Below are positions 1,069-52,038 of a stretch of DNA of 64,000 nt, in pieces. The DNA lies in NCBI GenBank assembly GCA_963740935.1, contig CAVUFX010000006.1, positions 982,554 to 1,046,553 on the forward strand. Reading direction: 5' to 3'. Numbering within the stretch: position 1 is the first letter of the stretch; each line of letters opens with the position of its first letter. The notes under the pieces are model-generated. The model saw nothing but the letters and a program-made list of their open reading frames with translations, was not told the origin of the DNA and made no database searches. Position numbers and translations under genes: made by a program. Source of the DNA: an uncultured Actinomycetota bacterium (GTDB lineage: Bacteria > Actinomycetota > Actinomycetes > Propionibacteriales > Nocardioidaceae).

Positions 1069-1836
1069 CTACTCCCACTTGAAGGTCCTCGCGGTCAGGG
1101 CCGCCCCGACGACGGCCCAGGCGGCCAGCACCAGCCACGCCCCCCAGGCTGCCTGGCCCGTCCAGAGCGCGCTGCGCAGCGCGTCGCCCAGGGCGCCCGA
1201 GGGCAGCAGCCGGGTGAGCGCCCCGGCCGCGCCGTACGCCGAGGACGGCAGCACCACGGCGCCGCCGGCCAGCAGCAGCAGGTAGACCAGGTTGGCGGCG
1301 GCCAGGGTGGCCTCCGCGCGGAGCACCCCGGCCACGAACAGGCCGAGGGAGGCGAAGGCAGCGGTGCCGAGCACGGCGCTGACCAGGGCCGCCGGCAGCG
1401 CCGGGTCGGGCCGCCAGCCGAACGCCAGGGCCACTCCGGAGATCACGACCGCCTGGACCGCCTGCACGAGCAGCAGCGCCAGCACCTTGCCGAGGAGCAG
1501 CCCGGTGCGGGGGAGCGGCGAGGCCCCCAGCCGCTTGATGACGCCGTAGCGGCGCTCGAAGCCGGTGGCGATGGCCAGCGACGTGAACGACGTCGACATC
1601 ACGGCCAGGGCCAGGACGCCGGGGGTGAACTCGTCGACCGCGGGCCGCGACAGGTCCAGGCCGATCCGGTCGGCCCCGAGGACCGCCCCGACGAGGACCA
1701 CGACCGGGATCACCACGGCCAGCAGCAGCTGCTCGCCGTTGCGCAGCAGCAGCCGGGTCTCCATGCCCGCCTGGGCGAGCACCTGGGCGCCGAGCGGAGC
1801 GCCTCCGGGGCGGGGGCTCAGGTCGAGCGCGGTCAC
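1069..1836 (-). CDS. ABC-2 type transporter permease
   Basis: LLLRNGEQLLL, TSLAIATGFERRYGVIKRLGASPL, six TM segments; GTG at 1836 overlaps the ATPase stop (GTGA). Confidence 0.9.
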   Translation of the reverse strand: MTALDLSPRPGGAPLGAQVLAQAGMETRLLLRNGEQLLLAVVIPVVVLVGAVLGADRIGLDLSRPAVDEFTPGVLALAVMSTSFTSLAIATGFERRYGVIKRLGASPLPRTGLLLGKVLALLLVQAVQAVVISGVALAFGWRPDPALPAALVSAVLGTAAFASLGLFVAGVLRAEATLAAANLVYLLLLAGGAVVLPSSAYGAAGALTRLLPSGALGDALRSALWTGQAAWGAWLVLAAWAVVGAALTARTFKWE

Positions 1837-2771
1837 GACAGGCCCCGTCCGGTCAGCTCGAGGAAGACGTCCTCGAGGGTGCGCTGGCCCAGGTTGAGCG
1901 ACTCGGGCAGCACCCCCTGCTGCTCGCACCAGGCCGACACGACCGCCAGCGTGGTGCTGTCGGCGGGACCGGTGATGAGCAGGCTGACCTCGCTGATCGT
2001 GGTGACCTCGAGGTGGCCGCCGAGCGAGGCCTGGAGCGAGTCCGGGGCACCGGCGGGGAACGGCTTGGTCACCACCAGGCGGATCGTCGAGGTGCCGCCG
2101 CGGGTGAGCTCGAGCGGGGTGCCGCCGGCGATGACGCGACCGCGGTCGATGATGTGGATCCGGTCGGCGAGGCGCTCGGCCTCGTCCATGTGGTGGGTGG
2201 TGAGCACCACGGTGACGCCGTCGGTGCGCAGCTGCCGCAGCAGCTCCCACGTCGTACGCCGGGCGGCGGGGTCCATGCCCGCGGTGGGCTCGTCGACGAA
2301 GACCAGCTCGGGGCGCCCGACCAGGGCGAGCGCGAGCTTGAGCCGCTGCTGCTGCCCGCCGGAGAGCCGCCGGTAGGGGGTGCGGCCGCAGTCCTCGAGC
2401 CCGAGCCGCTCCGCCAGGGCGTCGACGTCGAGCGGGTGGGCGTGCAGCCGGGAGACGTGCCGCAGCATCTCCATGGCGCGTACGCCGGACCAGGCGCCGC
2501 CGTCCTGGAGCATGACGCCGATGCGGGGCAGGAGCGCCCGGCGCTCGCGCTGCGGGTCCAGGCCGAGCACCCGCACGATGCCCTGCTGCGGGACGCGGTA
2601 GCCCTCGCAGGTCTCCAGCGTCGTGGTCTTGCCGGCACCGTTGGGGCCCAGCACCGCGGTGATGGTGCCGCGCTCGACGCGCAGGTCGAGGTGGTCGACG
2701 GCCGTCTTCTCGGCGTACCGCATCACCAGTCCCGAGACCTCCACGGCAGCGGAGGAGGAGGTGTCGGGCAC
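1833..2771 (-). CDS. ABC transporter ATP-binding protein
   Basis: Walker A GPNGAGKTT, signature LSGGQ, Walker B VFVDEPT; start GTG 2771 chosen from a TAGACT -10 7 nt upstream. Confidence 0.9.
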   Translation of the reverse strand: MPDTSSSAAVEVSGLVMRYAEKTAVDHLDLRVERGTITAVLGPNGAGKTTTLETCEGYRVPQQGIVRVLGLDPQRERRALLPRIGVMLQDGGAWSGVRAMEMLRHVSRLHAHPLDVDALAERLGLEDCGRTPYRRLSGGQQQRLKLALALVGRPELVFVDEPTAGMDPAARRTTWELLRQLRTDGVTVVLTTHHMDEAERLADRIHIIDRGRVIAGGTPLELTRGGTSTIRLVVTKPFPAGAPDSLQASLGGHLEVTTISEVSLLITGPADSTTLAVVSAWCEQQGVLPESLNLGQRTLEDVFLELTGRGLS

Positions 2772-2803
2772 GGGGTGGAGTCTACGAACCGGGGCCGCGA
2801 GGT

Positions 2804-3316
2804 TCAGAGCAGACCCTTGACGTACGCCGCCTGGCCGAGGTGCTGCAGGCAGTCGCCGATCACGCTGACGAGCCGGACACCGGCCGTGACCGGCGGGTCC
2901 CAGGCGTCGTCGACGACCCGGTCGAGCTCCTGCGGCCCGGCGCCCGTCGCGGGATCGAGGCGGCGCAGGTAGGACAGCGTCCGTTCGTGGACGGCGGCGT
3001 GGTAGGCCACCAGCAGGTCGAGGTCGTCGACCCGCACCGCATCGACCTCCTCGGGGCCGTGCCCGTAGCCGAAGTCCACGAGGTCGAGCGGCAGGTCGAA
3101 CCGCGACGCCCAGCCCACCCACGCCTGCTCGTCGCCCGCGAGGCCGGCCACGTGGTCGTCCTGCACCCGGGCGGTGTGCCAGAGCAGCCACACGATCGGG
3201 TTGCCGCGGTCCAGCGGGCGGCGGTGGGCCGTCTCGAGGTCGAGGCCCTCGACGACGTCCACGACGAGCTCGTGGATGCGCCCGACGTGGTCGACGAGGA
3301 GCGCGTGGGTGTCCAT
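2804..3316 (-). CDS. DinB-superfamily / mycothiol transferase-like protein (DUF664-like)
   Basis: NPIVWLLWHTARVQDDH ... VRLVSVIGDCLQHLGQAAYVKG; own -10 (TAGCCT) 7 nt before ATG 3316. The ORF track wrongly fuses it to the upstream protease. Confidence 0.8.
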   Translation of the reverse strand: MDTHALLVDHVGRIHELVVDVVEGLDLETAHRRPLDRGNPIVWLLWHTARVQDDHVAGLAGDEQAWVGWASRFDLPLDLVDFGYGHGPEEVDAVRVDDLDLLVAYHAAVHERTLSYLRRLDPATGAGPQELDRVVDDAWDPPVTAGVRLVSVIGDCLQHLGQAAYVKGLL

Positions 3317-3357: not shown

Positions 3358-5735
3358 TCACGGCGTCGCCGTGGACCCGGTGGTCCCCGCACCCGCCCCG
3401 GTCCCGTCGGGGGCGGTCCCGGTGGACGGGGAGGTCGTCGCCGCGGGGGACGGCGCGGGGGCCGGCTTCCCGGTGGTGCCGCCCGTCGGGGTGGCGGTGG
3501 GCGAGGTAGGGCGAGGAGGGCGACGAGGTCCCCGGTGCACCCGGGGCGGGCGACGACGTGGTGCTGGGGGAGGTGGAGGTGGTGGCGGGCGACGGCGACG
3601 GGGCGGTGCTGGCGGCGGTCGCGTCGGCGACCGGCGGCGCGCTGCCGAGGATGTCGACGATCTCGGCCTTGAAGCCCTCGAGCCGTGCCGCGACCTCCGC
3701 GAGCGGGTAGGAGGTGATGGTCCGGCCGAGCTCGATCAGCCGGCCCCACACCTCGCCGAGGGCGAGCAGCTGCTCCTCGCCCGGCTCGCTGCCCACCGAG
3801 AGGACCAGCTGGTTGGCGATGGCAGCGGTGATGCAGCGGTAGCAGTCGTAGTTGGCGGCGACGGCGAGGTTCTGCGGCACGATGACGCGCGCGTCGTCCA
3901 TCACCAGGACGACCTGGAAGGCCACCGCGACGGTCACGCAGCGGGAGCACGAGGCGTACGCGCGGGCCTCGTTGACCTGCAGCACCTCGTCGCCCTCGGC
4001 CCACACCAGGGCGAACGCGACGTCGTAGGAGACGCTGTCGTCGCGGGTGTTGACGGCCAGGGCCTGGTTGTCGCCCTCGGACGGCGGGAGCGGCCGGTCG
4101 AACGGGAACACCCAGGGCTCCTCGGCGCCGTCGCCCCCGGTCGCAGCGCCGTCCGCCCCGTCGGTGGGGACGAGCACCATCGCGAGCCGCGGCTCCGCCC
4201 TGGTGGGCAACCGCTCGCCCTTCGCGAAGGTCGCGGCCAGGGGGTCGGAGCCGGACAGGCGCCGCTCGGCGGCGGCACCTGTCACCGAGGCCGAGGCGGC
4301 CGGGGCGGCCTCGACGGCCGGGCCCGCCGCGGCGCCGGGCAGGGCCGCGGTCAGCAGGCCCTTCTCGTCGGGTCCGACGGGGCGGTAGGCGCCCGGGCGC
4401 GGGGCCCAGGCGAAGGACAGGAAGACCGCCACGGTGGCCACCAGCGCCACGGCGGCGACCCGGCGGGTGACCGAGCCGCGGCTCCAGGCCACCAGACCGG
4501 TGCCCCACCGCAGCACGAGGCGACCGAGGATCATCGCGCCGGCCACGACGGGGAGGACCACGGCCAGCACCTGGACCACCTGCGCCGCGACGTCGATCGG
4601 CTCGCCCCGGTCCCAGGCGCCGCTGACGGCCGAGGTGCCCTCGCCCAGCGCGGCCCAGGCGGAGCCGACCAGCCGGGGGAAGACCTTCACGAGCGTGAGC
4701 AGCATGAAGGCCATCAGCGGCACGGTGACGAGCACCCAGGCCGTGATCACGACGCGGGCCCAGGGCTTCAGGACGCGGTTCTCCTCGTCGCGCCAGCGGT
4801 GGGGCAGCAGCCCCAGGAGCGTGGGCCGGATGCGCTGGTAGAGGTCCGGGACGCCGGTGAGGTCGGCGAGGACGTGGTAGCCGTCGAAGCGCAGCAGCGG
4901 CATCAGCTGCTGCACCATCTGGAGGACCTGCGTCGCGACGAGGAGGAGCAGGGCGTCCCAGCCGGTGGCCCACCAGCCGACGAAGGTGAGCACCACCACG
5001 ACCGCGTTGAAGTAGAGCCCGCCCAGGTCGGTGCGCAGCCGACCGCCTCGCGGCAGCCGGTAGCTGTCGGTCACGTCGGTGTAGAAGGCGGGCCACACCA
5101 GGTAGATGCCGGCACCGATGACTCCCGGCACGGCGCCGCCGTAGCGGGCGGCGGCCGCGTGGCCGAACTCGTGGAACCCGCCCGAGAGCACGGTCACCAC
5201 GAACACGAGCAGGAGCAGGTGGGGACGCTGGAAGGCGTCGTACGCCGCCGGGGCCAGGCCGTGCCGGAAGAAGACCCAGCCGGTGACGGCCAGGAACGCC
5301 AGCACCACCGCGGCCGTCACGCCCGGGCGGAACAGGAACCGGAACGGGTCGGTGATCCTGCGTGTCGCCGCCGGGTCGGTGACCTTGAACCGCATCCTCA
5401 GGCCCAGCAGCGGGATCGGACCGCTTCAGGGCGGGTTCGCTCCCGTCGGCCAGCTTGAGCAGGCCGAGCGGTCGCAGCTGCTGGTCGACCAGCGTGGCGA
5501 CGACGTCCGGCGTCACCTCGCGGCGTACCGCCTCCCGGACGCGTGCGGCCACCTCCTCGGGGCTGCGGTGCCCGTCGATGGCGTCGAGGACGGCGTACAG
5601 CAGGGGGGTGAGCTGGAGCGTCTGGCCGTCGCCGCGCCTGACCAGCGCCGGTGGGGTCCGGTAGCCGGACCCCACCATGGTGCCGAGGAGCTGGAGGCCG
5701 TCGGCGCGCGCCGGCGCGTCGACGAGCGCGGTCAC
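3358..5735 (-). CDS. M50 (site-2-type) intramembrane zinc metalloprotease with N-terminal PqqD/RRE-like domain, C-terminal CxxC beta-domain and S/T/P tail; two apparent +1 frameshifts (~5413, ~3510)
   Basis: HEFGH (5159-5173), IYLVWPAFYTDVTDSY, PLLRFDGY; N-terminus LTPLLYAVLDAIDGHRSPEEVAARV...LRPLGLL resembles the PqqD winged helix. Frames join as SDP-LLGLRMRF and SSP-TSPTATP...stop 3358 if one base is removed at each site. Confidence 0.8.
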
Positions 5736-6714
5736 GGTGCGGTGGTGCTCGTGCCCTGGTCGGCGGTGCCGGACGCCGCCTCGGTGCCGTCGGCCGAGGC
5801 CGTGTCGGTGTCCGTCGGCTCGGTCGAGCCCTGGTCGATGGCCGAGGTCTGCTCCGAGGTCGCCTCGGCCGAGCCGGTGACCGACTGGGTGATGATCGCG
5901 TCCTGCTGGGCCAGGGCCGTGGCCTCGGAGTTCTCCGAGAGGATGTTCGCCGCCACCGAGGCGTCGATCGGGGCCGCGACGTTGGCGTTGGCCGCGACCG
6001 CACCGTTGATCGGGGCCGCCAGGTCGGCGTCCAGGTCGACGTTGACGTCCACGTTGAGCAGGTCGCCCTCGAGCAGGTCGCCGGTGTCGAGCTGGTCCAG
6101 GGGGTCGGTGACGCCGTCGCCGACCCCGCCCACCTGGCCGACGAGGTTGCCGGCGTCGTCGAGCACCTGGCCGGTGAGCGGGTCGAGCGACCCCACGACG
6201 TTGCCCGCGGTGTCGACCACGTCGCCGGTCGCACCGTCGAGCACGCCGACGACGTTGCCCGCGGAGTCGAGCACCTGGGTGCCGTCGACGGGGCCGGCAG
6301 CAGCGGCGGTGGCGGCGTCCGCGGCGTCGGGCGGCCGGCGGTCGCGTCGTCGACCGCGCCGGGCGTCCCGGTCGTGCCGGGCGTGACGGTGTCGGACTGG
6401 TCGATGGTGCTGTCCTGGATCCCGGTCGCGGACGCGTCGGCGTCGATGGTCTGCGTGATCTGCACGCCCTGGTCGGCCAACGCCTGGGACGTCGAGCCGT
6501 CGGAGAGCAGGTTGGCGCTCACGGCGGCGTCGATGGGCGCGGCCACGTTGGCGTTCAGCGCGACGGCGAGGTCGATGGGCGCGGCGCCGTCGATGGCGAG
6601 GTCCACGTCGGCGGCGAGGTCGAGGATCGAGACGACCTCCTTGTCCGGAAGCGCCGTCACCCCCTCGGAGGCGAGGTCCTCGGCGGTGATGGGGGCGTAC
6701 TCGTCGGTGCTCAT
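5732..6714 (-). CDS. Acidic Asn/Gln-ladder repeat protein with leader-like N-terminus (about 327 aa after repairing a 1-nt deletion at ~6335)
   Basis: ATG 6714 with GAGAGGAAG RBS; MSTDEYAPITAEDLASEGVTALPDKEVVS, then two 77-aa repeats; the stop overlaps the protease start (GTGA). Confidence 0.75.
5831..6627 (-). repeat. Two colinear 77-aa repeats (6397-6627 and 5831-6061) flanking three ~18-aa D-x-AGN-V/L-VG repeats (6123-6280)
   Basis: Manual ungapped alignment gives 43/77 identical residues; the core NANVAAPIDA is identical in both copies. Confidence 0.9.
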
Positions 6715-6919
6715 GGTGCTTCCTCTCCCTGTCCCGCCCGACGTGTGATGCCGAGCGGGAGACGATGTCATCCCGGCGCCGTGTCCGGCCGCTGCGTGTC
6801 CTGGAGGAGACGCGTCGACCGGTGGGTGATGACGCCGGTGCGGCGTGTCTACCCGACCGGACCGGGATCCACACCCGATTCCCAGGTTCCGGGACGGTGC
6901 CGGCCTGGTAAGGCGAGCC

Positions 6920-6970
6920 TTATTTGAAAGGCCCCCACCATTAAGAGCACACTTGCGTTGTGGAAATCCC
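6920..6970 (+). promoter_or_regulatory. AT-rich promoter of the suf operon, possible SufR autoregulatory site
   Basis: Local AT-rich tract; CACACT hexamer 6 nt before the GTG; only a weak ATT...AAT dyad. Confidence 0.35.
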
Positions 6971-7718
6971 GACCCAGACCCCCGCACCCGGCGCCACCGG
7001 CGTCGTGGAGGGGCACGACCGGCCGACGCGTGAGCGCGTCGCCCGCTCGATCCTGGACAACGGACCCTCCACCGCCGCCGTGCTGGCCCAGCGGCTCGGG
7101 CTGACCCCGGCCGCCGTGCGCCGCCACCTCGACCTGCTGATCGAGGAGGGCACCCTGGAGTCGCGGGAGGCCCGCAACGTCGGCGCTCGTGGCCGTGGCC
7201 GCCCGGCGAAGGCGTTCGCCCTCACCGAGACCGGCCGCGACCGCTTCGACCAGGCCTACGACGACCTGGCCGTGCAGGCGATGCGCTTCCTGGCCGAGAC
7301 CGGCGGCGACCAGGCCGTCCGCGCCTTCGCCGAGCGCCGTGCCTCGCAGATCGAGCGACGCTTCGCCGACCTCAGCGACGCGCACCCCGAGCTGGTGGCC
7401 ACCGAGGCGCTGGCGCGGGTGCTGTCCGAGGACGGGTACGCCGCCGCGGTCCGCGAGGTGCCCGTGGGGGAGCAGCTGTGCCAGCAGCACTGCCCCGTCT
7501 CCCACGTGGCCCACGAGTTCCCGCAGCTGTGCGAGGCCGAGACCGAGGCCATCGGCCGCATGCTCGGGCGCCACGTCCAGCGACTGGCGACCATCGCCCA
7601 CGGCGACGGCGTCTGCACCACCTGCATCCCCGCGACGCCCGGCACCTCCGGTGCCGCCGGCGTCGGCACCACGACCGGATCCACCCCCGCTCCCCAAGGC
7701 AAGGAGATCGTCAGATGA
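6960..7718 (+). CDS. sufR: SUF regulator SufR (HTH + Fe-S-binding Cys)
   Basis: [30 protein letters not shown]...LCEAE...HGDGVCTT; first gene of the suf operon. Confidence 0.9.
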
Positions 7719-9133
7719 CGTCCATCGAGGAGCTCAACCCCGAGCTCAAGGGCATCGGCCGCTACGAGTTCGGCTGGTCCGACAAGAACGACGTCGGCGC
7801 CAACGCGACCCGTGGACTCAACGAGGACGTGGTGCGCAACATCTCCACGCTCAAGAGCGAGCCGCAGTGGATGCTCGACCTGCGCCTGAAGGGCCTCAAG
7901 CTCTTCGGCCGCAAGCCGATGCCGACCTGGGGCTCGGACCTCAACGGCATCGACTTCGACAACATCAAGTACTTCGTGCGGTCCACCGAGAAGCAGGCCC
8001 AGACCTGGGACGACCTGCCCGAGGACATCAAGAACACCTACGACAAGCTCGGCATCCCCGAGGCCGAGAAGGCCCGTCTGGTCTCCGGTGTCGCCGCGCA
8101 GTACGAGTCCGAGGTCGTCTACCACGCGATCAACGAGGAGCTCGAGGCCCAGGGCGTGCTGTTCCTGGACACCGACACCGCGCTCAAGGAGCACCCCGAG
8201 CTCTTCGCGGAGTACTTCGGCACCGTCATCCCCGTCGGTGACAACAAGTTCTCCGCGCTCAACTCCGCGGTGTGGTCCGGTGGCTCGTTCATCTACGTGC
8301 CCAAGGGCGTCCACGTCGAGATCCCGCTGCAGGCCTACTTCCGGATCAACACCGAGAACATGGGCCAGTTCGAGCGCACGCTGATCATCGCCGACGAGGG
8401 CTCCTACGTGCACTACGTCGAGGGCTGCACCGCGCCGATCTACTCCTCGGACTCGCTGCACTCCGCCGTGGTCGAGATCATCGTCAAGAAGAACGCCCGG
8501 GTGCGCTACACGACCATCCAGAACTGGTCGAACAACGTCTACAACCTGGTGACCAAGCGCGCGACCTGCGAGGCCGGCGCCACCATGGAGTGGGTCGACG
8601 GCAACATCGGCTCCAAGGTGACGATGAAGTACCCCGCCGTCTACCTGATGGGCGAGCACGCCAAGGGCGAGACGCTCTCGATCGCGTTCGCCGGCGAGGG
8701 CCAGCACCAGGACGCCGGCGCCAAGATGGTCCACGCCGCGCCCAACACCTCCAGCTCGATCCTGAGCAAGTCGGTGGCGCGTGGCGGCGGCCGGACGTCC
8801 TACCGCGGCCTGATCCAGGTCAACGAGGGCGCCCACGGCTCCAAGAGCAACGTCCTGTGCGACGCGCTCCTGGTCGACCAGATCAGCCGCTCCGACACCT
8901 ACCCCTACGTCGACATCCGCGAGGACGACGTCTCGATGGGGCACGAGGCCAGCGTCTCCAAGGTCTCCGACGACCAGCTCTTCTACCTGATGTCGCGCGG
9001 CATGGAGGAGGACGAGGCCATGGCGATGATCGTGCGCGGCTTCGTCGAGCCCATCGCCAAGGAGCTGCCCATGGAGTACGCCCTCGAGCTCAACCGGCTG
9101 ATCGAACTCCAAATGGAGGGTGCAGTCGGCTGA
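7715..9133 (+). CDS. sufB: Fe-S cluster assembly protein SufB
   Basis: [29 protein letters not shown] motifs; ATG overlaps the sufR stop. Confidence 0.97.
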
Positions 9134-9252
9134 GCCGGCGTAGCCGGCCCAGCCGACTGGTGGGGCTGCTCGTCCTCGCTGACGCTCGTCCTCGTCATGG
9201 TTGAGGCCCCCGGGGGTCTCACCGCTGCCACCGAACTACCTGGAAGAAGCTT

Positions 9253-10455
9253 GTGACTGTTGCAACCGAGAGCGTCCGTGACGCCCTGGAGATGACCGAC
9301 AAGGTCCTCTCGCACCTCCACCCGGAGGGGTCGTTCGACCTCGCCGACCACGCCGTCCCGACGGGGCGCGAGGAGGTGTGGAGGTTCACGCCGCTGAAGC
9401 GGCTGCGGGGCATCCACGCCGAGGCGCCGCTGACCGGCGCGCAGGTCGAGGTGGTGGCCGAGACCGCCCCGGGCGTGAGTGCCGGACCGGTCGGCGTGGA
9501 CCACGAGGTGCGCGGCACCTCGGGCCTGGTCCCGCCCGACCGGATCAGCGCCCGGGCCTGGGAGGCCGCGACGTCGGTCTACCTCGTCGACGTGCCGCAG
9601 GAGACGGTCAGCGACCAGCCCACCACGGTCACCGTGACCGGCATCGGCGGCGACACCGCCACTGCCGGCCACCTCGTGGTGCGGGCGGGCGCGTTCTCGC
9701 GCTCCACCGTGGTGCTGCACTTCCGCGGCAGCGCCACGCTGGTGGAGAACGTCGAGATCCTCCTCGGCGACGGCGCCGAGCTCACCGTCGTGACCGTGCA
9801 GGACTGGGACGACGACGCCGTGCACCACTCCACCCAGCACGCCAAGGTGGGGCGTGACGCCACGCTGCGCCACGTCGCGGTCTCCATCGGCGGCGACGTG
9901 GTCCGCCACGACGCCACCGCGGAGTACGCCGGCCCCGGTGGCTCGGTGGAGATGCTCGGCCTCTACTTCGCCGACGCCGGCCAGCACATCGAGCACCGGC
10001 TCTTCGTCGACCACAACGCTCCCCACACCCGCAGCAACGTCGTCTACAAGGGCGCGCTGCAGGGCCAGGGCGCGCACGCCGTGTGGATCGGGAACGTGCT
10101 GATCCGCAAGGTCGCCGAGGGCATCGAGACCTACGAGGAGAACCGCAACCTGGTCCTCACCGACGGGTGCCAGGCCGACTCCGTGCCCAACCTGGAGATC
10201 GAGACCGGCGAGATCGAGGGTGCCGGGCACGCCTCGGCCGTCGGCCGCTTCGACGACAACCAGCTGTTCTACCTCCGCTCGCGCGGGATCGAGGAGTCCG
10301 AGGCGCGCCGCCTGGTCGTGCACGGCTTCTTCCACGACCTGATCCGCAAGATCGGCGTGCCCGACCTCGAGGAGCAGCTCGTGCGCACCGTCGAGGCCGA
10401 GCTGGAGAAGAACGTCGGCAAGATCACCGGCGCCGTCACGGTGGCGGCCCCGTGA
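9253..10455 (+). CDS. sufD: Fe-S cluster assembly protein SufD
   Basis: EEVWRFTPL, ADSVPNLEIETGEIEGAGHAS, FYLRSRGI, LVVHGFF. Confidence 0.95.
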   Translation: MTVATESVRDALEMTDKVLSHLHPEGSFDLADHAVPTGREEVWRFTPLKRLRGIHAEAPLTGAQVEVVAETAPGVSAGPVGVDHEVRGTSGLVPPDRISARAWEAATSVYLVDVPQETVSDQPTTVTVTGIGGDTATAGHLVVRAGAFSRSTVVLHFRGSATLVENVEILLGDGAELTVVTVQDWDDDAVHHSTQHAKVGRDATLRHVAVSIGGDVVRHDATAEYAGPGGSVEMLGLYFADAGQHIEHRLFVDHNAPHTRSNVVYKGALQGQGAHAVWIGNVLIRKVAEGIETYEENRNLVLTDGCQADSVPNLEIETGEIEGAGHASAVGRFDDNQLFYLRSRGIEESEARRLVVHGFFHDLIRKIGVPDLEEQLVRTVEAELEKNVGKITGAVTVAAP

Positions 10456-48331: not shown

Positions 48332-48407
48332 GCGGGACGGGTGACGACGACGACCAGTGAGAACAAGTGCGTGACAGCGGCGCTGGGCCGGTCCTACCCT
48401 CGGGGCC

Positions 48408-49992
48408 GTGCCCGACCTGACCCCCGACGACCCGGAGTTCTTCGCCGGCCTCGTCGCCCAGGTCGCGGACTACGCCATCATCTCGCTGGACCCGCAGGGC
48501 CTGATCACGTCGTGGAACACCGGAGCCGAGCGGGTCAAGCAGTACACCGCCGACGAGGCCCTGGGCCGCAGCTTCGTCGCGTTCTACACCGACGACGACC
48601 GGCGGGCCGGGTTGCCGATGCAGCTGCTGGAGAAGGCCCGACGACAGGGCCGCGTCGAGCACACCGGCTGGCGACGGCGCAAGGACGGCACGCTGTTCTG
48701 GGGCGACGTGGTCATCACCGCGCTGCGCGACGCCGAGGGTCGGGACGTGGGCTTCGTCAAGGTGACGCGTGACCTGACCGACCAGCACGAGCTGGAGACC
48801 CGGCTGCGCATCAGCGAGGAGCGGCTGCGGCTGCTGGTGGGGCAGGTGGCGGACTACGCCATCATCGCGCTGGACCCCCAGGGGACCATCGAGACCTGGA
48901 ACCTCGGTGCCGAGCGGCTCAAGGGCTACCGCGAGCACGAGGCGCTGGGCATGAGCTTCGCCAACTTCTACACCGCCGAGGACCGGCGCGCCGGCCTACC
49001 CGCTCGGCTGCTGGAGACGGCCCGACAGGACGGCCGGGTCCAGCACGCCGGGTGGCGGGTGCGCCGAGACGGCACCCGGTTCTGGGGCGACGTCGTCATC
49101 ACGGCGCTCCACGACGACGCGGGCACCCTCACCGGCTACGCCAAGGTGACGCGCGACCGCACCGACCTCAAGCGGCTCGAGGAGGCGCAGGACGCCTTCT
49201 ACGCCGCCTTCCGACACGACTTCCGGGCGCCGCTCAGCGCGTTGCACGGGTTCGTGCAGCTCCTGCGTGAGGCCGACGAGGAGGACCGCGACCACCTGTT
49301 CGACCGGATCGAGTCGAGCGCCGACCGCCTGATGGCGATGGTCGAGGGGCTCGTGGAGTTCGCCACGACCCGGGCCGGCGCGGCCCACCTGACCCCGGAG
49401 ACCGTCGACGTCGCCCAGGTGGTGCGCGACGTCGTCGCCGACCTCGGGCCCGAGCTGCGTCCGCGCCGGGTGGTGGTCACCGGCGAGGAGGCGCTGGCCG
49501 TGGCCGACGGCGAGGCGCTGCACCGCGTGGTGACCAACCTCGTGGTCAACGCGCTGAAGTACTCCGCTCCCGACACGCCGGTGCACGTCGCTGTGGCCCT
49601 GGCTCCTGGGGAGCTGACCTCGGCAGACCCGGGCCAGGGGGACGGTTCAGGGGACGCCGGCCCGGACGCCGGCCCGGACGGCGCGCCGCAGCAGGGCGTG
49701 GAGATCCGGGTCCAGGACCGCGGGCGCGGCATCGACCCCCGCGACCTGGAGCGCGTCTTCGAGGAGCTCGAGCGGGGCCGGCTCGCCGTGGCCGACGGCG
49801 GCACCGGGCTGGGCCTGGCGAGCGTGAGGCAGCTGGTCGAGCAGCTAGCAGGGCACGGTGCGCCTCGAGAGCGAGCTGGGGCGCGGCACCACGGCGGTGG
49901 TCTGGCTGCCCCGGCAGCCCGACCCGCACCCGGGGGCGGGTCAGTCCCCGGTGGCGGCGGGGGAGGGGACGGCCGGCCAGCCCTCGGGGTAG
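48408..49992 (+). CDS. Cytoplasmic PAS-PAS sensor histidine kinase; apparent single T insertion at 49846
   Basis: Two near-duplicate PAS/PAC domains, HDFRAPL, NLVVNALKYS, DRGRGI, GTGLGL; removing T49846 restores QQGTVRLESELGRGTT...stop 49992. Confidence 0.85.
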
Positions 49993-50561
49993 TCGGGCGC
50001 CTCGGCCTCCATCTGCTTGCGCAGCCGCTTGCGCGCCTTGGCCGCCACGCGGTCGCCGAACACGGTGCCCAGGGTGTGGTCGGTCTCGTGCTGCAGGCAG
50101 CGGGCGAGCAGGCCGTCGCCCTCGTAGGAGACCTCGTGGCCGTCGGCGTCGGTGCCGGTCACCCGCGCCCAGTCGGGGCGGGGGCACTCCACGAACGCGC
50201 CGGGGTAGGACAGGCAGCCCTCGTCGCCGTCGTCGAGCCGGCGGTCGCGGCCCACGGGCAGCGCCACCTCGGGGTTGCAGACCACGCCGCGGTGGGTGGT
50301 GCCGTCCTCGTCGGGGCAGTCGAAGACGAACACCGCCAGGTCGACCCCGACCTGGCAGGCGGCCAGCCCGACACCGTCGGCGGCGTACATCGTGGCGACC
50401 ATGTCGGCCACGAGGGCGCGCAACTCGTCGTCGTACGCCGTGACCGGCTGCTGGCGGCGGTGCATCACCTCGGTGCCCCACCGGGTGATCGGACGGACCG
50501 TGCCCCCGGTCGGCAGCGTGGCCGAGGTCGGGGCGACGGGGAGATCGCTGGTGTCACGCAT
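49941..50561 (-). CDS. def: Peptide deformylase
   Basis: GVGLAACQ, EGCLS, HETDH. Confidence 0.93.
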   Translation of the reverse strand: MRDTSDLPVAPTSATLPTGGTVRPITRWGTEVMHRRQQPVTAYDDELRALVADMVATMYAADGVGLAACQVGVDLAVFVFDCPDEDGTTHRGVVCNPEVALPVGRDRRLDDGDEGCLSYPGAFVECPRPDWARVTGTDADGHEVSYEGDGLLARCLQHETDHTLGTVFGDRVAAKARKRLRKQMEAEAPDYPEGWPAVPSPAATGD

Positions 50562-50612
50562 GGGCGGATCCTATGCGTGAGCCGCGACACGGGACGAGGG
50601 TGTGGCGCGGTG

Positions 50613-50629
50613 TGTAACTCACAGTTACA
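50613..50629. promoter_or_regulatory. Perfect palindromic operator overlapping the -10 of the acyl-CoA dehydrogenase pair
   Basis: TGTAACT-CAC-AGTTACA; TACATT (50626-50631) lies 6 nt before ATG 50638. Confidence 0.7.
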
Positions 50630-50637
50630 TTGGCGTC

Positions 50638-52038
50638 ATGGCTTCCTCGAAGGACAAGCGCGCGACCGCCCGACCGACCGCCCTGCTGCCCTGGACGCTG
50701 CTGCGGGCCGGGGGCCGCAACGGGCTGGCGGAGAGCGAGACCCGCGACCCCATCGGCCTGGCCGTCGCCGCGCTCAACCGGCTCGCCTCCTCCGAGATCC
50801 TCGACCAGCTCGGGCTGCGCAAGGCCAGCGAGCGCAGCGTCTACCGGGTGACCAGCGCGGGCTTCCGCACCGCCGGCACCGTGGGGCGCCAGTTCGCCCG
50901 GGCCGGCAAGGCCACCCGGGGCCAGCGGGTCCCGGCCGCCGCCTCCACCGGCCAGTTCGACCTCACCCCCGGCGAGGACGAGCAGATGATCGCCGACGTC
51001 GTCGCGGAGCTCGCCGAGGAGGTCGTCCGCCCGGCCGCCTCGGCGGCCAACGAGGAGTGCGCCGCCCCCGAGGACCTGCTCAAGGCCACGCTCGAGATCG
51101 GGCTGCCGATCCTGGGCGTGCCCGAGGAGCTCGGCGGCATCGCCACCGAGCGGTCGGCCGTGACCGGGGTGCTCGTCCACGAGGCCCTGGCCAAGGGCGA
51201 CATGGGCCTGGCCGTCGCGGCCCTGGCCCCCGGTGCCGTCGCCACCGCCATCTCGCTCTACGGCACCGACGAGCAGCAGGCGACCTACCTCCCGGCCTTC
51301 ACCGGCGACGAGGTCCCGGCCGCTGCGCTGGCGCTCGCCGAGCCCACCGCGCTCTACGACGCCCTGGCCCCCGCCACCACCGCCGAGCGCCGTGACGGCC
51401 GCATCGTCCTCAACGGCGTGAAGTCCGGCGTGGTCCGCGGCGCCGACGCCGAGCTGTTCGTGCTCAGCGCCAGCTTCGAGGGCGAGGCCCGGCTGTTCCT
51501 CGTCGAGTCCCGCGCCGCGGGCATCACCATCGAGTCCGACCCCTCGATGGGGCTGCGCGCCGCGAGCCTCTCGCGGCTGCTGCTCGACGACGTGGCGGTC
51601 GAGGAGATCGCGCTGCTGGGCGACGCCGCCGACCACACCGCCTGCGTCCGGTCCTCCCGGCTCGCCTGGTGCGCGCTGGCCGTCGGCACCGGTCAGGCCG
51701 TGCTCGACTACGTCACGCCCTACGTCAAGGAGCGCCAGGCCTTCGGCGAGCCGATCGCCCACCGCCAGTCGGTGGCGTTCATGGTGGCCAACATCGCCAT
51801 CGAGCTCCAGGGCATGCGCCTGGTCACCTGGCGCGCCGCCAGCCGCGTCGCCCGGGGCGAGGACGCCGCCCGCGAGATCGCGCTGGCCCGCCGGCTGTGC
51901 AGCGAGCACGGCATGCGCATCGGCCTCGACGGCGTGCAGCTGCTCGGGGGCCACGGCTTCGTCAAGGAGCACCCGGTCGAGCGGTGGTACCGCGACCTCC
52001 GGGCCATCGGCGTGATGGAGGGGGCGGTCCTGGTCTGA
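50638..52038 (+). CDS. Acyl-CoA dehydrogenase (FadE24-like)
   Basis: LALAEP, GLRAAS, RQAFGEPI, QLLGGHGFVKEHPVERWYRD. Confidence 0.9.
   Translation: MASSKDKRATARPTALLPWTLLRAGGRNGLAESETRDPIGLAVAALNRLASSEILDQLGLRKASERSVYRVTSAGFRTAGTVGRQFARAGKATRGQRVPAAASTGQFDLTPGEDEQMIADVVAELAEEVVRPAASAANEECAAPEDLLKATLEIGLPILGVPEELGGIATERSAVTGVLVHEALAKGDMGLAVAALAPGAVATAISLYGTDEQQATYLPAFTGDEVPAAALALAEPTALYDALAPATTAERRDGRIVLNGVKSGVVRGADAELFVLSASFEGEARLFLVESRAAGITIESDPSMGLRAASLSRLLLDDVAVEEIALLGDAADHTACVRSSRLAWCALAVGTGQAVLDYVTPYVKERQAFGEPIAHRQSVAFMVANIAIELQGMRLVTWRAASRVARGEDAAREIALARRLCSEHGMRIGLDGVQLLGGHGFVKEHPVERWYRDLRAIGVMEGAVLV

Follow-up and report, generated by a model that had tools for sequence, protein, structure and literature searches.

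A two-gene actinobacterial cassette pairing a hyper-acidic modular protein with a site-2-type membrane protease

An acidic gene and its overlapping partner

We analyzed a stretch of 64,000 nucleotides (hereafter, the window) from an uncultured bacterium of the Nocardioidaceae (Actinomycetota; GenBank assembly GCA_963740935.1, contig CAVUFX010000006.1, positions 982,554 to 1,046,553 of the forward strand), and focused on a cassette of two overlapping genes on its minus strand. The upstream gene (5732..6714) encodes a hyper-acidic protein with two similar modules; the downstream one (3358..5735) encodes a putative membrane protease. The acidic gene starts with an ATG at 6714, preceded at a distance of 5 nt by a Shine-Dalgarno-like GGGAGAGGAAG (6719..6729, minus strand, read from the sequence), and stops with a TGA at 5734-5732. 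It occupies two frames in this assembly, and reading through the frame break near 6333 yields a protein of about 327 aa.

The composition of this protein, counted on its two halves (325 aa), is extreme. It has one Lys, one Tyr, and one Met, lacks Arg, His, Cys, Trp, and Phe altogether, and contains 19% Ala, 14% Asp, 11% Thr, 10% Gly, and 9.5% Val; there are 56 acidic residues (D+E) versus a single basic one (K+R). The residue counts of the initial annotation (one Lys, one Tyr, none of the five absent residues) thus proved correct throughout. So did the two 77-aa repeats that it described, for which self-alignment without gaps again gave 43/77 identical positions as the best match (offset 189), and its four AAPI[DN]xxVxxN units, which are exactly four and start at residues 44, 58, 233, and 247 of the read-through. 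It had further remarked on a near-absence of trypsin sites, and here too our recount agrees: the sole Lys sits in the leader-like N-terminus, the remaining protein has none, and a mature form would consequently offer no tryptic site.

The leader-like N-terminus, MSTDEYAPITAEDLASEGVTALPDKEVV (6631..6714, minus), contains an L-P-D-K-E-V core whose residues (L22, P23, D24, K25, E26, and V27) are invariant in alignments of 42 and of 86 sequences. No Sec or Tat signal was found on the window protein or on most of its homologues, the N-terminus being acidic and devoid of a hydrophobic signal. Module 1 follows directly (6391..6630, minus). It opens with an acidic preface, (I/L)LDL..DVDL, and continues with two AAPIxxAVxxNANV units of 14 residues each and a Gln-laddered half, in which the glutamines are spaced as Q-x5-Q-x11-Q-x5-Q. 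Module 2 (5825..6061, minus) has the same layout and is the most conserved part of the family. In family alignments the modules are nearly invariant and the linker between them is very variable. In the window protein this variable centre (6062..6289, minus) holds about four hairpin repeats of the form G-N-V-V-G-x-L-D-x-x-T-G, of the DUF3659 or beta-flower type, and module 2 is followed by a variable acidic tail rich in Thr, Asp, and Ala (5735..5824, minus), which ends in ...TSTTAP. Short family members lack the tail and end on the last Gln of the module.

In the window the central hairpin block scores below the Pfam gathering cut-off for DUF3659 (21.6 bits, E = 2e-4, versus 24.8), and the centres of longer orthologues exceed the Pfam cut-offs (29.7 for DUF3659 in the Marmoricola sp. 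Leaf446 locus L037; 42.8 versus 38 for Bflower_2 in P0025). The central repeats share the [DNEQ]xxG hairpin-tip motif with the beta-flower and DUF3659 families (PF21784, PF21785, PF12396), and the likeness is confined to this part of the protein; the 5-fold beta-flower fold was described by Durairaj et al. 2023 (PMC10584680). Repeat copy number varies between strains. The Leaf446 orthologue exceeds the window protein by about 143 residues in total, most of them in additional G-N-V-V-G repeats, and a contig of the environmental run X5 carries 303 letters more than the window within the centre (window 6257-6289). This contig comes from a conspecific environmental strain, which points to a centre-repeat polymorphism of about 100 residues within the species. 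Since short family members are entirely without the centre, we regard it as an accessory insert and not as the defining part of the protein.

The partner gene starts with a GTG that overlaps the stop codon of the acidic gene by 4 nt (GTGA), and in this assembly its own frame is broken at 5412 and 3508. Its product begins with a PqqD-like domain (5726-5412, minus) resembling an RRE, the recognition element of ribosomally made peptides that undergo post-translational modification (RiPPs). There follow a multi-pass, site-2-type membrane metalloprotease core, with an HEFGH motif (5173-5159, minus) and an LRFDGYH motif (4894-4874, minus), and a domain with four cysteines (hereafter, the 4-Cys domain; 4072-3794, minus), which gives way to a Ser/Thr/Pro tail. 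The core matches two NCBIfam models, daptide_HExxH (NF041824; E = 2e-20, at 73.1 bits versus an equivalog cut-off of 300) and the YydH/LiaK model RiPP_HExxH_LiaK (E = 8e-10, below the equivalog cut-off). By these profile matches the partner core is homologous to RRE-dependent leader peptidases.

Conservation, predicted structure, and location

The acidic protein belongs to a large family. Searching with the read-through retrieved more than 3388 relatives from a large protein collection, which, where named at all, are called hypothetical protein; P0051 alone bears another label, rRNA processing protein Gar1. Among species-representative genomes, scanning gave at least 567 relatives, with hosts in Nocardioides, Marmoricola, Terrabacter, Intrasporangium, Arthrobacter, Mycolicibacterium, Microthrixaceae, and Solirubrobacterales, and a search of 1.8 billion representatives with module 2 alone yielded 315 clusters at 50% identity. 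Members range from about 100 to 580 aa and end in Gln, Pro, or another residue; the single-module ones (P0198, P0219, and P0206, about 104 aa) consist of the leader and one module. Intact homologues have 1-4 basic (K+R) and 40-80 acidic (D+E) residues and almost no Cys, Trp, Phe, His, or Tyr. This composition and the two modules recur in all intact homologues and are not a product of chance: the family is a real, widely conserved actinobacterial protein of extreme composition. Two apparent variants with a fused signal or enzyme (P0127, P0190) are likely chimeric gene calls and were excluded. No Pfam or NCBIfam model matches the modules in the window protein or in its orthologues, and no amyloid family in Pfam, curlin and chaplin included, matches at E values up to 1.

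The acidic gene is linked to the protease almost without exception. When we clustered the neighbouring open reading frames (ORFs) of about 80 loci, only these two genes were conserved (70 loci each), and the next-largest clusters were antisense shadows of low-complexity tails. A third conserved gene, such as a transporter or a modifying enzyme, was sought in the same clustering and none was found. About 74 of 78 loci have an HE[FL]GH motif some 200 codons downstream of the acidic gene, conservation of the 4-Cys domain extends to 78 loci, and the 4-nt overlap seen in the window is the usual arrangement. Two metagenome-assembled genomes (MAGs) carry two copies of the cassette each, on separate contigs (L026/L031 and L039/L045).

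The initial annotation had proposed a beta-solenoid or amyloid-like protomer. We obtained AlphaFold2 monomer models for two intact homologues, P0053 (318 aa, 42 sequences) and L065 (224 aa, 86 sequences), whose mean predicted local distance difference test (pLDDT) was 60 and 57, respectively. The hairpin repeats of the centre were the only confident region (pLDDT 80-97). The Gln-rich halves of the modules were modelled as long paired strands, at a pLDDT of about 60-75, and the AAPI units stayed below a pLDDT of 50, without secondary structure. Where a strand has one conserved face, conservation is expected to alternate with a period of two, and column conservation in the Gln-rich halves indeed has a period-2 power of 5.0 and 13.6, versus at most 1.1 at period 3.6; the AAPI halves are uniformly conserved. 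Models and conservation together support beta-strand behaviour of the Gln-rich module halves, so that this part of the proposal stands. Its solenoid does not: neither monomer model contains stacked coils, the AAPI units are modelled as unstructured, and a Foldseek search against the PDB returned no match at E < 1. We also compared the module with the 4-Cys domain of the partner. The resemblance to a stretch of that domain is faint (hhalign probability 5%, E = 0.008 in a single comparison, versus 0.41 for the reversed control), and a templating relation between the two is thus not established.

Where the two proteins act is suggested by variants found in one divergent lineage. At locus L085 (5116-7862), the protease has no 4-Cys domain of its own, and the gene after it codes for a Sec signal peptide with a 4-Cys domain behind it, 38% identical to that of the window over 154 aa (E = 8e-27). 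At locus L083 (851-1410), a two-module protein is followed by a small protein (P0233) and then by a 4-Cys-domain protein, with 4-nt overlaps between the genes. P0233 has a Sec signal peptide in place of the leader, directly before one module, with a predicted cleavage at ...SAQA|AAPID, and its signal peptide is near-identical to that of the 4-Cys-domain protein. Judging from these signal peptides, the L083/L085 lineage has its 4-Cys domain and its module on the extracytoplasmic side. The 4-Cys domain of the window should face outward as well, because it is homologous to the split versions behind Sec signals, and an outside destination is likewise expected for the acidic protein, because its single-module homologue carries such a signal. 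From these sequence relationships, the acidic protein probably acts outside the cell.

Frame breaks in this copy of the cassette

In this assembly the acidic gene contains a -1 frame break (6328..6334, minus), with one base fewer than near-identical metagenome contigs. The first frame runs from the ATG for about 127 residues, ending in ...GAVDDATAG; after the break the good frame resumes in frame -1 with DAADAATAAAAGPVDG and continues to the stop, and a frame scan based on GC content at third and second codon positions (GC3/GC2) reveals the same switch as the translation. Environmental contigs that are identical or within 3 mismatches over 40-195 nt are available for all three breaks of the cassette. 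A 68-nt contig of run X5 (depth 25, 0 mismatches over 6317-6356) has one letter inserted behind 6333, and a contig of run X4 has the same insertion, which joins both halves in frame. In the partner gene, the first break corresponds to an extra G in the GGG run at 5412-5414, a contig of run X3 being otherwise identical over 5300-5465 and one base shorter, and the second to an extra base at 3508, within the Ser/Thr/Pro tail, where a contig of run X2 is one base shorter. With the frame uninterrupted at 6333, 5412, and 3508 in near-identical contigs, intact alleles exist. Homologues are also single ORFs (P0004, 395 aa and 85% identical; P0007; P0053), and so is the closest genome locus, L037 of Marmoricola sp. 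Leaf446, with 470 aa and 87% nucleotide identity. Compared with Leaf446, codon differences are 19 synonymous and 1 nonsynonymous in the N-terminal half, and 38 synonymous and 13 nonsynonymous in the half after the break, where 42/56 differences fall at third positions. Given the intact alleles and the purifying selection on the downstream half, we take the full-length protein to be the selected, natural product. The initial annotation had allowed that the frameshift might be real and the downstream half untranslated; for the family this does not hold, whereas for the present copy it may or may not.

Whether the cassette of this genome is truly inactivated, so that frameshifts near 6333, 5412, and 3508 prevent the full-length protein from being made, or has been locally mis-assembled, is an almost evenly balanced question, because the source strain's own reads were not found: a search of sequencing runs returned only metagenomes, with a best word share of 0.39, and the reads of runs X1, X2, X3, and X7 gave no coverage over the junction. 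All frame breaks found in the 64-kb window fall within the 3.4-kb cassette, and at the other 21 same-strand junctions between genes the transition is normal and bounded by a stop. Breaks so concentrated speak against sequencing errors spread evenly over the window, and each break site has a near-identical environmental contig of frame-preserving length. True decay, however, should be rich in substitutions, and the ratio of indels to substitutions relative to the environmental contigs is about 1:1, which argues against an old decaying pseudogene. The codons on either side of the break are, moreover, still under purifying selection, and the acidic gene is broken in nine MFD MAG loci too, hinting at error-prone assembly. 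We therefore place true inactivation in this strain a little short of an even chance. The nine MFD loci (L007, L008, L027, L031, L045, L047, L052, L056, and L061) have a truncated or off-frame, Arg-rich acidic gene; these copies indicate that the gene is either hard to assemble cleanly or often inactivated.

A programmed -1 ribosomal frameshift linking the two halves would agree with the sign of the change and with both frames being open over the junction. The junction (GAC GCG ACC GCC GGC CGC CCG), though, has no slippery heptamer of the X XXY YYZ type, every orthologue and every near-identical environmental copy is a single ORF, and two more breaks, of the other sign, lie in the neighbouring partner gene. 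On these grounds we rejected programmed frameshifting as extremely improbable.

The surroundings of the cassette differ between genomes. In the window, a suf operon (ArsR-type regulator, SufB, and SufD; 6960-10455, plus strand) diverges from it, and a DinB-like gene and an ABC-transporter ATPase lie downstream (1833-3300, minus strand); these suf, DinB-like, and ABC neighbours are not conserved beside the cassette in other genomes. Elsewhere in the window, a long ORF (48375-51395, plus strand) loses its coding-type GC3 signal about 360 codons ahead of the stop codon and overlaps a gene on the minus strand (49941-50570); it may be an open-frame run-on of high-GC DNA.

A putative exported cargo of an RRE-dependent protease

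Several known systems resemble the cassette in part. During daptide biosynthesis, the precursor loses its leader to a site-2 protease with an N-terminally fused RRE (10.1101/2023.03.08.531785). The daptide peptidase MpaP/DapP, encoded with the precursor MpaA, has the same arrangement as our partner, namely a PqqD/RRE-like N-domain on an HExxH site-2-type protease beside the gene for a leader-bearing substrate, and daptide_HExxH is the best NCBIfam match of the partner, although far below its equivalog cut-off. Unlike in daptide loci, DapB (DUF-RRE), the oxidative decarboxylase, the alcohol dehydrogenase, the aminotransferase, and the methyltransferase are not conserved in our set of loci. Daptide precursors are short and end in Thr, whereas the acidic protein has 100-500 aa, is hyper-acidic and modular, and has no C-terminal Thr; the partner, unlike the daptide peptidase, carries or pairs with the additional extracytoplasmic 4-Cys domain. 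A daptide system was rejected for these reasons (the sub-cut-off score, the missing gene set, and the lack of a short Thr-ending precursor). The epipeptide systems YydF/YydH and LiaK and the class II bacteriocins likewise have a membrane HExxH protease that processes the leader-bearing product of an adjacent gene. Our cassette differs from these systems in having no conserved radical-SAM epimerase or ABC transporter, and in a far larger cargo.

Among functional amyloids, curli (CsgA/CsgB) and Fap (FapC) have imperfect repeats of small residues with regular Gln/Asn and strand-turn-strand units, and conserved repeats with linkers of variable length, encoded alongside a dedicated accessory protein, all of which recalls the acidic protein. 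Unlike these, the acidic protein has no match by sequence or profile and no Sec signal, occurs in Gram-positive hosts, has a net charge of about -55, comes with a different partner set, and shows no solenoid in the AlphaFold2 models. Curli and Fap were rejected on the missing Curlin_rpt match (E up to 1) and the missing Sec signal. Streptomyces, likewise a member of the Actinomycetota, secretes chaplins and rodlins, which are surface-active amyloid proteins. Chaplins, however, are short, have a Sec signal and two Cys, and are hydrophobic, the opposite of the acidic composition found here, and with no chaplin-domain match in Pfam and zero Cys this candidate was rejected as well.

The interpretation we favour, with somewhat better than even confidence, is that the acidic protein is a beta-rich polyanion that carries a leader and is exported as the cargo of an RRE-dependent protease, and that the two constitute a conserved two-gene cassette of Actinomycetota. 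The cargo would comprise a leader of about 28 residues with the LPDKEV core, then one or two modules of approximately 77-80 aa, to which the Nocardioides clade adds a variable beta-hairpin block separating the modules and an acidic tail behind them. The leader would be bound by the PqqD/RRE-like N-domain of the downstream-encoded protease and cut off by its site-2-type HExxH core. The mature polyanion, free of Lys and Arg, would then reach the outside of the membrane and meet the extracytoplasmic 4-Cys domain. Outside the cell it would most likely serve as a beta-rich structural or surface protein, possibly polymerizing through its Gln-laddered strands and possibly binding cations. Binding of the leader, the site of its cleavage, the way out of the cell, and polymerization are inferred; fibre or amyloid formation, to which the period-2 conservation and the predicted strands of the Gln-rich halves lend indirect support, may be plausible, as may cation binding by the cargo.

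A number of observations weigh against this interpretation. The RRE assignment rests on sub-threshold matches: the N-domain of the window matches Pfam PqqD at E = 0.07, below the gathering score, and although PqqD is the commonest Pfam match on this domain, it appears in 9 of 39 orthologues, always below threshold, with a best E value of 0.003. A profile of the domain searched against PDB sequences found no RRE, and returned only chance-level matches (TAB1, L23). Hydropathy gives an ambiguous count of 6-8 transmembrane segments for the partner. No export machinery is conserved in the cassette across the loci, and protein translocation is not a known activity of site-2 proteases. The evidence from Sec signals derives from a single divergent lineage, represented by two short metagenome contigs. 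To these must be added the lack of a solenoid in both monomer models, the poor quality of the module models (pLDDT 40-75), and a literature search by motif and by RRE/HExxH systems, in which no experimental paper on the family was found.

Two further explanations deserve consideration. The acidic protein could be a polyprotein that the protease cuts at the prefaces, SILDLAADVDLAIDG|AAPI and DLLNVDVNVDLDADL|AAPI, to free one or two unmodified active peptides of about 65 aa (a signal, or a bacteriocin-like or surface-active peptide), the centre and tail serving as spacers. The two prefaces are alike, P0233 would begin exactly at AAPI once its signal is cleaved, and linkers vary enormously between nearly invariant modules, all as such processing would have it. 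But the central hairpin block is a confidently folded domain under selection and not a mere spacer. The partner's kinship with RiPP leader peptidases and the precursor-like size of the single-module members (about 104 aa) point the same way as the prefaces, yet no modifying enzyme or transporter is conserved nearby, and a polyanion of approximately 65 aa without Lys or Arg is unlike known bacteriocins or signalling peptides. We regard the polyprotein as unlikely. Alternatively, the protein could stay in the cytoplasm as a nucleic-acid mimic, a cation buffer, a protectant against stress or desiccation, or a regulator, which the RRE-protease would degrade or activate. Such a role would suit the lack of a Sec or Tat signal on the window protein and most homologues, and the cleavage of site-2 protease substrates, which normally takes place at the cytoplasmic face; repeats of the DUF3659 type, according to the Pfam description, occur in fungal intracellular proteins. 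It is at odds with the split variants, in which Sec signal peptides precede the 4-Cys domain as well as a module, and the conservation of the 4-Cys domain in 78 loci is hard to fit into a purely cytoplasmic circuit. This second alternative seems to us very unlikely.

Returning to the exported cargo, a more specific version of it can be envisaged, which we hold to be quite doubtful: the cassette may be a self-contained, ATPase-free pathway for export and assembly. The RRE would capture the LPDKEV leader, the enlarged, site-2-protease-like membrane domain would clip off the leader and let the polyanion through to the outside by means of the membrane potential, and the 4-Cys domain would receive the modules or template them into a surface fibre or matrix. 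Such an electrophoretically driven passage would explain why there are no basic residues after the leader.

RRE-fused site-2 proteases have so far been known as leader peptidases of small modified peptides. Here the same recognition logic appears to be coupled to a modular protein that is large, unmodified, and hyper-acidic, and to an extracytoplasmic Cys-domain partner, in a cassette found in hundreds of soil actinobacterial species without a modifying enzyme or a transporter. Since the mature cargo would have no tryptic site, standard proteomics would miss it, and this blind spot may explain why so widespread a family is annotated only as hypothetical. If the cargo is indeed exported and assembles, the cassette would represent a surface-fibre or matrix system not described before in Gram-positive soil bacteria, and might be a new way for a protein to pass through the membrane.

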